A DNA stretch of 62,410 nt, filler included, from Chlamydiia bacterium (GTDB taxonomy: Bacteria; Chlamydiota; Chlamydiia; Chlamydiales; FEN-1388), in NCBI GenBank assembly GCA_903848235.1. It is 13 parts of 13 records of this genome, joined end to end, with 100 filler letters (N's around TTAATTAATTAA, not from the genome) between each part and the next. Parts side by side here need not be neighbours in the genome. Positions count along the whole stretch, not along the records: positions 26,919 to 30,320 come from CAINFV010000192.1; 12 more parts are not named here. One strand, given 5' to 3'. Position 1 is the first letter of the stretch, and each line of letters begins with the position of its first letter. Made by a program: the position numbers and the translations under genes. The notes beneath the pieces are model-generated. The model had not been told where the DNA came from. It did no database searches and saw only the letters and a list, made by a program, of their open reading frames with translations. Shown here one piece after another: positions 28,314 through 29,836 of the stretch.

Positions 28314-28566
28314 GGGGGGTATGTTGCTCCTAAAGGCTTGTGCACAACGTCGGCCGCCACCGATGGTAGAAAATTGCCCGCCATCAATGATTACATCTTG
28401 ATTTGCCCGTTTTTACTGCCTCTGTTATAGTCCGATTAACGTCTTATGGTACATGGCTTTATTGCGAAGGGCTGTTGTTGGTATGGCTCGTTGTAAACTC
28501 GGGCTAGAGTTCTTTATTGTATGATGGCCTTAGGCTATAGGACAAACACAAAAACGAAGAGTTTTT

Positions 28567-28860
28567 GTCAACCGCACACACCCCTAAAGGTAGGGGCTTG
28601 AGGGGAGAAATCTCCAAAGGCGGTTGACCAGACCCCTCGGGTATCCGAAGGAGACGATTTTGTGGAATGGCAAGGGGATCCTTGCCGAAATAGGCACTCC
28701 GGGATGCGTTGCCAGTTTCGGACTCTGCGGTAAATGTTCATGCTAGGGCGAAGCGTAAACCCTGAAGGATATTTATAAAAACCCACAGAAGACGAGGTCG
28801 AGGCGAACTTTATTCAGGCCCGTAAGGGCATTTTGGGAGTGGAAACTCTCCCATTTTTAA
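28567..28860 (+). ncRNA. HEARO / omega-RNA (IscB guide-RNA scaffold)
   Basis: GTCAACCGC/GCGGTTGAC closing stem followed by CAGAC; GGGATGC-GTT-GCCAGTTTCGGACTCTG; GTCGAGGCGAACTTT; GCCC-GTAA-GGGC and GGGAG-TGGAAACT-CTCCC hairpins, all resembling HEARO/omega-RNA layout. Confidence 0.78.
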
Positions 28861-28927
28861 CACTTAACTTAAGGAGCGAGGCTTCCTTCATGACCTAAAG
28901 GTCACGGTCTTTAGCCTCGTCGAATTG
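28567..28927 (+). mobile_element. Non-autonomous IS200/IS605 IscB-type element (no ORF)
   Basis: Begins GTCAAC; subterminal hairpins share CCTAAAGG at both ends (CCCCTAAAGGTAGGGG; TGACCTAAAGGTCA); ends ...GAATTG directly before ATGA. Confidence 0.8.
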
Positions 28928-29836
28928 ATGAAGTCAGTTGCTAAAAGAGTTGTCCTCTTCTTGCTGCTCAACGCAGCGGTGATCCTTACGGTCTCTCTGC
29001 TATTGAGCTTTTTTGATATTCGTCCATACCTGACGGGTGTGGGCATGGATTACCAATCCCTTCTCATCTTTTGCCTTATCTGGGGTTTTGCTGGGGCGCT
29101 GATCTCCCTTGCGATGTCACGCCTGATGGCAAAATGGATGATGGGCGTTGAAGTGATAGATCCAGATACGACCCAGCCGCTCGAGCGTCAGCTGCTCGCT
29201 ACCGTCCGTCAGCTTGTCAAACGAGCAGGGCTTCCCAAGATGCCAGAAGTTGGTGTCTATGAGTCTGACGAAGTCAATGCCTTTGCCACGGGCCCTAGCC
29301 GCTCACGAGCGCTGGTGGCTGTGTCATCGGGGTTGCTTCGCAGAATGGACTGGACAGAGATCGAAGGTGTCTTAGGTCACGAGGTGTCTCACATCGCCAA
29401 TGGTGACATGGTGACGATGACGCTGCTTCAAGGCGTTGTCAACGCCTTTGTGATGTTCTTCGCCCGCGTGCTTGCCTATGCTGTCACCAGTATGACACGC
29501 CAGCGCGATAGCGATTCTCGTCCGTCTTTTCTCTACAACATCCTTGTCTTTGCCTTTGAGATTGTCTTTATGATTCTTGGTGCCATCGTCGTCGCGACCT
29601 ATTCCCGCGCTCGTGAATACCGGGCCGACGAAGGTGGGGCGCGTCTTGCTGGAAAGCAGGCGATGATCCAAGCGCTCACACGCCTTCAAGCGGTGGTGAA
29701 GATCGAAGATCCTCGCGCTCAGCATACCTCGTTCCAGGCGTTTAAGATTTCAAATCCTGGCGGTATGCTTCGGCTCTTTTCTACCCACCCACCCCTTGAA
29801 GATCGCATCGCGCGTCTTGAAGGACGATCCTCGTAG
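28928..29836 (+). CDS. htpX: Membrane zinc metalloprotease HtpX
   Basis: NAFATG, HEVSHIANGDMVTMTLLQGVVN (HExxH), SRAREYRADEGGA, LFSTHPPLEDRIARL. Confidence 0.95.
   Translation: MKSVAKRVVLFLLLNAAVILTVSLLLSFFDIRPYLTGVGMDYQSLLIFCLIWGFAGALISLAMSRLMAKWMMGVEVIDPDTTQPLERQLLATVRQLVKRAGLPKMPEVGVYESDEVNAFATGPSRSRALVAVSSGLLRRMDWTEIEGVLGHEVSHIANGDMVTMTLLQGVVNAFVMFFARVLAYAVTSMTRQRDSDSRPSFLYNILVFAFEIVFMILGAIVVATYSRAREYRADEGGARLAGKQAMIQALTRLQAVVKIEDPRAQHTSFQAFKISNPGGMLRLFSTHPPLEDRIARLEGRSS

Follow-up and report, generated by a model that had tools for sequence, protein, structure and literature searches.

A protein-less IscB-type element at the start codon of htpX in a Chlamydiia bacterium and the enrichment of its relatives directly before start codons

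In the genome of a Chlamydiia bacterium (GCA_903848235.1, here G000), the start codon of htpX is directly preceded by DNA that codes for no protein and resembles an RNA gene, which raises the questions of what this DNA is, how it came to lie there, and how the gene behind it is still expressed. We analyzed a window of 62,410 nucleotides made of 13 parts of this genome joined with filler; the locus lies on contig C192 (3402 bp), positions count along the window, and every feature of the locus given below is on the + strand. A sequence-only reading had proposed an ORF-less element with an IscB omega-RNA, inserted exactly at the htpX start, whose transcript would carry a guide taken from the htpX leader and would be loaded in trans by an IscB encoded elsewhere to act on the empty site.

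The mobile unit occupies positions 28567..28927, 361 bp in all, with GTCAAC as its first bases and ATGA directly 3′, the ATG at 28928 being the htpX start. The Rfam HEARO model (RF02033) matches 28567-28813 over its full length (model positions 1-211 of 211) with 83.7 bits and an E value of 2e-15, a score only just above the gathering score of 83. The omega-RNA scaffold (28567..28830) takes in this match and the right-end hairpin of the transposon and is followed at 28834..28858 by a terminator-like hairpin with a T run, common to the sister copies, that may form the 3′ end of the omega-RNA; by count, such hairpins are not above shuffled sequences (2 versus 1.1 ± 1.3). The sequence CCTAAAGG is found at 28583-28590 and 28894-28901 in the cores of hairpins near both element ends, and the register of the 5′ hairpin is shifted by substitutions relative to the sister copies. 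Near the htpX start, a Shine-Dalgarno-like AAGGAG motif (28871..28876), mostly unpaired in the centroid structure, stands directly 5′ of the terminal, or left-end, hairpin (28876..28920, 45 nt). This hairpin consists of an outer stem (28876-28883/28913-28920) and an inner hairpin with a TAAA loop (28891-28904), ends 7 nt before the ATG, and has stems that covary in other genomes by inspection of alignments. No frame within the 361 bp exceeds 72 aa, the nearest small frame inside the element (28833-28898) stops 30 nt 5′ of the ATG, a consensus scan of the 3′ tail of the element found no outward promoter, and the last three element bases form an in-frame TTG immediately 5′ of the ATG. As in PATE-type non-autonomous elements, each end has a subterminal hairpin, and terminal inverted repeats and protein genes are missing; the ends are common to protein-coding elements of the same genome (the 5′ 264 nt to the C268 element, the 3′ tail to those on C4, C146, and C268), and the insertion lies at a fixed motif without target duplication, with an empty site present. 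ISC transposons encode IscB and the htpX element does not, so that it is a derivative and not a full ISC element: a non-autonomous element of the IS200/IS605 ISC (ISGst5-like) type (28567..28927) that has lost iscB and kept both ends and the omega-RNA. The ORF-less HEARO element that the sequence-only reading had placed against the htpX start codon is thereby borne out.

Whether such an element is an insertion or a native leader can be judged from relatives. The ORF downstream (28928..29836) is intact and encodes an HtpX of 302 aa (NF003965, 361 bits against a cut-off of 245), with a start codon that relatives share. When the element is cut out in silico, the htpX leader and start can be aligned through the junction with those of G001, a genome of the same genus. 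All 24 relatives tested (the best 24 of 29 with a match) lack the element upstream of htpX, and none of the 22 other genomes of the family has a HEARO match at or above the cut-off. Together, the empty site in G001 and the absence from the 24 relatives tested indicate, as had been claimed, a real insertion, and one specific to this lineage, and they rule out a conserved native htpX leader. The accompanying prediction that excision would restore a leader running straight into ATGAAG stands as far as the alignment across the junction goes and falls short at the level of single letters, the match with G001, a different species, being close and not letter-perfect. No element-less htpX joint was seen in contigs of four sequencing runs from two studies, contigs being prone to drop rare variants, and contigs spanning element junctions are present in both studies. 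Among the htpX differences listed for the sequencing runs, 13 of 13 are synonymous, a count that we do not use as support.

The search of G000 for further copies returned six HEARO matches and three iscB loci, one intact (C268), one frameshifted and cut by a contig end (C4), and one internally deleted (C146). Short copies with RNA only number four (355-374 bp): three share 84-88% identity, and the fourth has a different scaffold. The ten related 3′ ends are followed by ATGA in 10/10 cases and by ATGAA in 9/10. For tnpA we found three contig-end fragments only, two of which differ in their end and go with an ATAA target; a cognate tnpA was not found in the G000 assembly, which is 93% complete and in 284 contigs. 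Decayed half-elements are common in G000, and those keeping only the 5′ end also precede ATGA starts. One 45-bp 5′-end remnant lies exactly on the pheS start (C96:20076-20120), where G001 has an empty site, and has a GGAG ~10 nt upstream of the ATG. A full RNA-only copy (C96:15094-15452) separates tRNA-Val from infC, whose called start (TTG) follows 29 nt later. The product of infC, IF-3, is essential, and this copy thus puts an essential gene behind a terminator-like hairpin, which suggests either read-through or a promoter that we do not see. As the pheS remnant and the infC copy attest, essential genes tolerate such insertions.

Several other features of this genome were recorded in passing. 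More 5′-end-only remnants lie 49-137 nt before ATGA-headed ORFs at C102:26323, C7:4642, and C100:4894 (290, 329, and 82 aa); the one on C100 is a short palindromic stub, and the gene behind it we take to be HicB-like. Remnants of the 3′ end only, with motif, hairpin, and ATG, each head a long ORF at C70:1824, C70:433, and C282:4214, and a 5′ end is missing within 2-3 kb of them; here the putative RBS module may have outlasted the rest of the element. The elements on C4 and C146, both with damaged iscB, end in the 3′ half of a C192-type omega-RNA and have the look of hybrids in which an iscB element with one scaffold type is joined to a mini-element with a different one. Another IS200/IS605 family, which has tnpA, its own kind of hairpin, and ATAA(A) as target, is found at C66:1-150, at the end of C67, on C175, C252, and C97, and in G001; it occurs in 2 of 401 genomes, G000 included, too few for a broad control. 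A multi-copy TnpB family on C30, C33, C50, C80, C107, C133, C141, and C179 has a right end that resembles the 5′ end of the IscB elements. Elsewhere in the window, broken reverse-transcriptase/endonuclease-like frames (22893-24744), which we take to be non-LTR retroelement-like, lie on a contig that is possibly a contaminant in the bin, and an ORF with a DPPW motif (22192-22800) presumably resembles an MT-A70-type methyltransferase. A tandem repeat with a period of ~150 bp lies at 57014-57599, at the end of contig C196, and also on contig C18, and short repeats with many genome copies, MITE-like or IS ends, lie at 291-461, 2023-2143, 14741-14889, 15182-15348, 33219-33328, 35059-35200, and 50793-50976.

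Could the htpX copy supply a guide RNA? Over its first 264 nt it shares 93% identity with the omega-RNA of the C268 iscB element, which encodes an intact IscB of 440 aa (NF040563, 435 bits against a cut-off of 175) with RRXRR and HNH. Residues D57, E156, H211, H309, and D312, which by analogy we take to be catalytic, are present. The omega-RNA of this intact element scores 81.8 bits on HEARO, no better than the htpX copy, and the first six element bases are repeated in tandem at its 5′ junction (C268:4537-4543). The IscB encoded elsewhere that the sequence-only reading had called for thus has a candidate in the same genome, and the htpX promoter that it presumed has one at 28403..28431, a σ70-like site with 9 of 12 consensus matches and TG before the −10 in a region conserved in G001 (the scan gave 2 sites versus 0.5 expected in shuffles), whose function is predicted from its sequence. 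Transcription from this site would give a leader of ~130 nt up to the element, and the last 20 nt (28547..28566), which hold the native htpX leader with its RBS region and align with the G001 leader, are the predicted guide. A second site with guide and ATGA was not found in the G000 assembly, even for the last 8 guide nt, and an off-target of the guide elsewhere in the genome was set aside. The proposal that ATGA serves as the guide-adjacent TAM agrees with published data in that the target ATGAA (28928..28932), the htpX start codon plus two nt, is on the opposite strand TTCAT, the TAM of GstIscB (Meers et al., bioRxiv 10.1101/2023.03.14.532601). The scheme as a whole, in which a leader guide directs a cut at the empty joint and the element is then restored, is already published for PATE-borne omega-RNAs (Meers et al.) and is not new.

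Taken alone, the htpX element is one more standalone omega-RNA, and the pattern across its family weighs more. Nine of the ten element ends in G000 adjoin plausible starts: eight head an ORF of 100+ aa, as do 18% of ATGAA sites by the same ORF rule (which can admit internal methionines where the other element end is missing), and the ninth heads a 70-aa gene of the MerR-type HTH kind, the tenth being the infC copy. A crude gene caller blind to the elements placed starts at 6/10 junctions versus 18.7% of non-coding ATGAA sites (P = 0.0045), and the same count against a stricter null of non-coding, sense-only sites (31.5%) gives P = 0.059. Search patterns for the wider sets held neither the target nor the Shine-Dalgarno motif; the sets overlap partly, with some sites recurring, and kin are not independent. 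Ends lie at starts in 18/31 cases in species genomes (background 20%, P = 3e-6), in 19/42 in metagenomes (16%, P = 8e-6, with ORFs scored only at the 42 sites having 330+ nt of flank), and in 16/23 in genomes of the same order (19%). The species-genome set comprises the first 80 of 120 loci and 7 further ones, from which one duplicate and 32 failures of the end rule were dropped, the latter being chance matches together with some true elements with other targets. These counts show statistically that elements of this kind are enriched directly before start codons. A TnpB-only family without a HEARO match shows the enrichment too (8/19 at starts versus 15%), so the need of an IscB guide for an outside promoter cannot be the whole cause, and an omega-RNA-specific cause was rejected as the sole one. 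The htpX site is not special either, since most G000 copies and these TnpB-only relatives are likewise at start codons.

The left end of the element offers a possible reason for tolerance at such sites. Among 127 distinct end variants, which come from several phyla, 94 have an AGGAG-type motif directly 5′ of the terminal stem, versus 51 of 868 control windows (6%) placed further inside the same elements, the motif having had no part in the search patterns, and an A-rich run lies 5′ of the motif. Over the end variants, AGGAG lies a median of 51 nt from the ATG linearly and, with the stem folded, a median of 9 nt (mode 8); in the htpX element the distances are ~50 nt and, with the terminal hairpin folded, ~8 nt. 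MFE-based estimates of the spacer were unstable and the conserved stem was used instead; whole-region folds often pair AGGAG, with an unpaired probability of mostly 0.2-0.5. The motif is missing next to the stem in six ATAA-target ends (by eye, and essentially one family) and in two ends each from haloarchaea and Opitutae. A conserved TTCCT 6-7 nt downstream is complementary to AGGAG, which may be structural by pairing with it. Ends with the motif are at starts in 52/87 cases versus 12/30 without it (P = 0.088), with 14/27 versus 6/15 in another set (P = 0.53), and in a Clostridiales burst the motif is present in 17/20 copies, only 3/20 of which head long ORFs. The geometry fits a working split RBS at the start codon, and such a function, predicted from the fold, is possible.

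As a whole, we consider a non-autonomous ISC-type element with mobility in trans, a guide drawn from the leader, and survival at starts aided by an RBS borne on its end to be the best explanation, with a probability somewhat above even. Insertion without target duplication directly 5′ of ATGAA at the htpX start is the observed step. Judging from the family, TnpA supplied in trans would move the element, and a single TnpA excises five families (Meers et al.). The htpX promoter would transcribe leader and scaffold, with the last ~20 nt of the leader becoming the guide; the C268 IscB would load this RNA and cut htpX alleles from which the element had been excised, and recombination after cleavage would restore it, as in published restorative homing. 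The start bias would arise mainly from selective survival, because an ATGA start is the only coding-adjacent site at which insertion leaves the ORF whole. The folded terminal hairpin would bring AGGAG to within ~8 nt of the ATG, so that the end probably rescues translation, a rescue that would need read-through of the internal terminator-like hairpin.

The same element could also give its host genes no translational help, with AGGAG serving structure through TTCCT pairing or TnpA handling, start sites surviving for sparing the ORF, and htpX being translated weakly or from the in-frame TTG. The complementarity to TTCCT, the lack of a significant link between motif and start sites, and a burst that carries the motif at background start use would all fit. 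Such an account is nevertheless unlikely in our judgment, given that the folded spacer clusters at 8-9 nt behind an A-rich run, that the roughly one quarter of end variants lacking the motif imply that transposition does not need it, that the motif is missing in the ATAA-target ends (essentially one family), and that pheS and infC tolerate insertions. The start bias itself might instead arise at insertion, without selection, if TnpA prefers single-stranded DNA near transcription starts. Near-identical young copies are indeed still enriched (8/19 in G342, P = 0.004; 7/15 in G184, P = 0.013), and Meers et al. do not decide whether the orientation bias that they describe is "preferentially generated or retained". 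(On contig C1 of G342, a genome of the same order, there are twenty near-identical TnpB elements of ~1250 bp, 19 before ATGAA and one before ATAA, a set well suited to dating insertions.) Against an insertional origin, which we regard as improbable, the Clostridiales burst is at background (3/20 heading long ORFs, P = 0.43), and survivors in low-copy genomes are more enriched than copies in two high-copy genomes (33/46 versus 15/34, P = 0.02, a post hoc split that gives P = 0.053 without G000). With TnpB-only relatives enriched too and young bursts less enriched, the evidence favors selective survival over omega-RNA-specific targeting as the source of the start bias.

The htpX copy in particular may have become an inert relic whose omega-RNA is not made or loaded and which no longer moves. 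Its HEARO score barely over the cut-off, its 84-88% identity to the other short copies, the altered register of its 5′ hairpin, the lack of a cognate tnpA in the G000 assembly, and the many decayed half-elements around it all point that way. On the other side, the HEARO score is no higher for the intact iscB element, the copy is 93% identical to the omega-RNA of that element and has both ends complete, and a promoter candidate lies upstream, so that we find this state rather unlikely. A host-domesticated regulator, with the RNA or IscB controlling htpX translation or stress induction, would draw on the position at the RBS-start junction. It is very improbable with the element missing upstream of htpX in all of the tested relatives (24 of the best 24 of 29), HEARO above the cut-off in 0/22 other family genomes, and copies standing before unrelated genes.

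Returning to the ISC-type element with an end-borne RBS, its reach would extend beyond htpX. A broader claim, which we offer tentatively and rate at somewhat less than even, is that a clade of IS200/IS605 elements in several phyla, with IscB, with TnpB, or with RNA only, joins a start-codon-bearing target to a left end that acts as a portable split RBS, remaining near-neutral translationally even at essential genes, and that in IscB members the displaced leader becomes a guide protecting the insertion site. Should the end function as a split RBS, insertion sequences would have, besides splicing as in IStrons, a further general way to neutralize their cost, and the RBS of host genes, even of essential ones, would be silently exchanged for that of the element; a portable RBS would be like an IStron without splicing. 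Such an end would also account for the frequency of ATGA-type TAMs among IscBs, bear on the question of "targeted or retained" for the orientation bias of IscB elements, and test what size of hairpin the initiating ribosome tolerates between Shine-Dalgarno motif and AUG. For trans loading, this one genome provides a pair, an RNA-only copy and a cognate IscB element with 93% identity.

How does the htpX element compare with known systems? The closest are ISGst5 and the PATE-like elements of Geobacillus stearothermophilus. As far as the available text of Meers et al. goes, these share the TAM TTCAT (= ATGAA), a right-end omega-RNA, a flank-derived guide, the need for outside transcription, protein-less omega-RNA elements acted on in trans, and cleavage of the donor joint. 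For ISGst5 that text, extended data and supplements aside, describes an orientation bias to upstream genes and neither start-codon landing nor an end-borne RBS; "start codon" appears in it once, in another sense. Among ISC transposons, ISC1-1_MA, ISC2-1_HM, and ISC2-1_MS (N|ATGA target; Kapitonov, Makarova, and Koonin 2016, PMC4810608) likewise start with GTCA and insert 5′ of ATGA, and the ISC group shares the absence of target duplication, a 3′ terminus common to TnpB-only elements, and non-autonomous members. The ISC transposons of that paper encode IscB, unlike the htpX element, and "start codon" has no occurrence in its main text. In the parts of PMC9755519 and PMC13565253 available to us there is nothing on start-codon landing or an end-borne RBS, and our literature search found no report of either; Altae-Tran 2021, Weinberg 2009, and supplements lay outside this search and may mention them. 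Standalone omega-RNAs can work with IscB in trans (Altae-Tran 2021 as cited in PMC9581776; PMC11610941) and, as standalone omega-RNA/HEARO (RF02033), have no linked ORF (PMC9581776, PMC11610941), as is the case here. The htpX element differs from them as described in these sources in that it is a mobile unit complete with both ends and placed at a start codon. For the predicted split RBS, the precedent is that of phage T4 genes 25 and 38, in which a hairpin between Shine-Dalgarno motif and AUG shortens an over-long spacing (PMC3014915). By that account, the T4 hairpins loop out 16-17 nt in fixed genes, whereas the htpX element would loop out ~43 nt in a hairpin that is at the same time a transposon end. 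The htpX element thus belongs to a known kind, that of PATE-like elements with an omega-RNA, and stands close to ISGst5.
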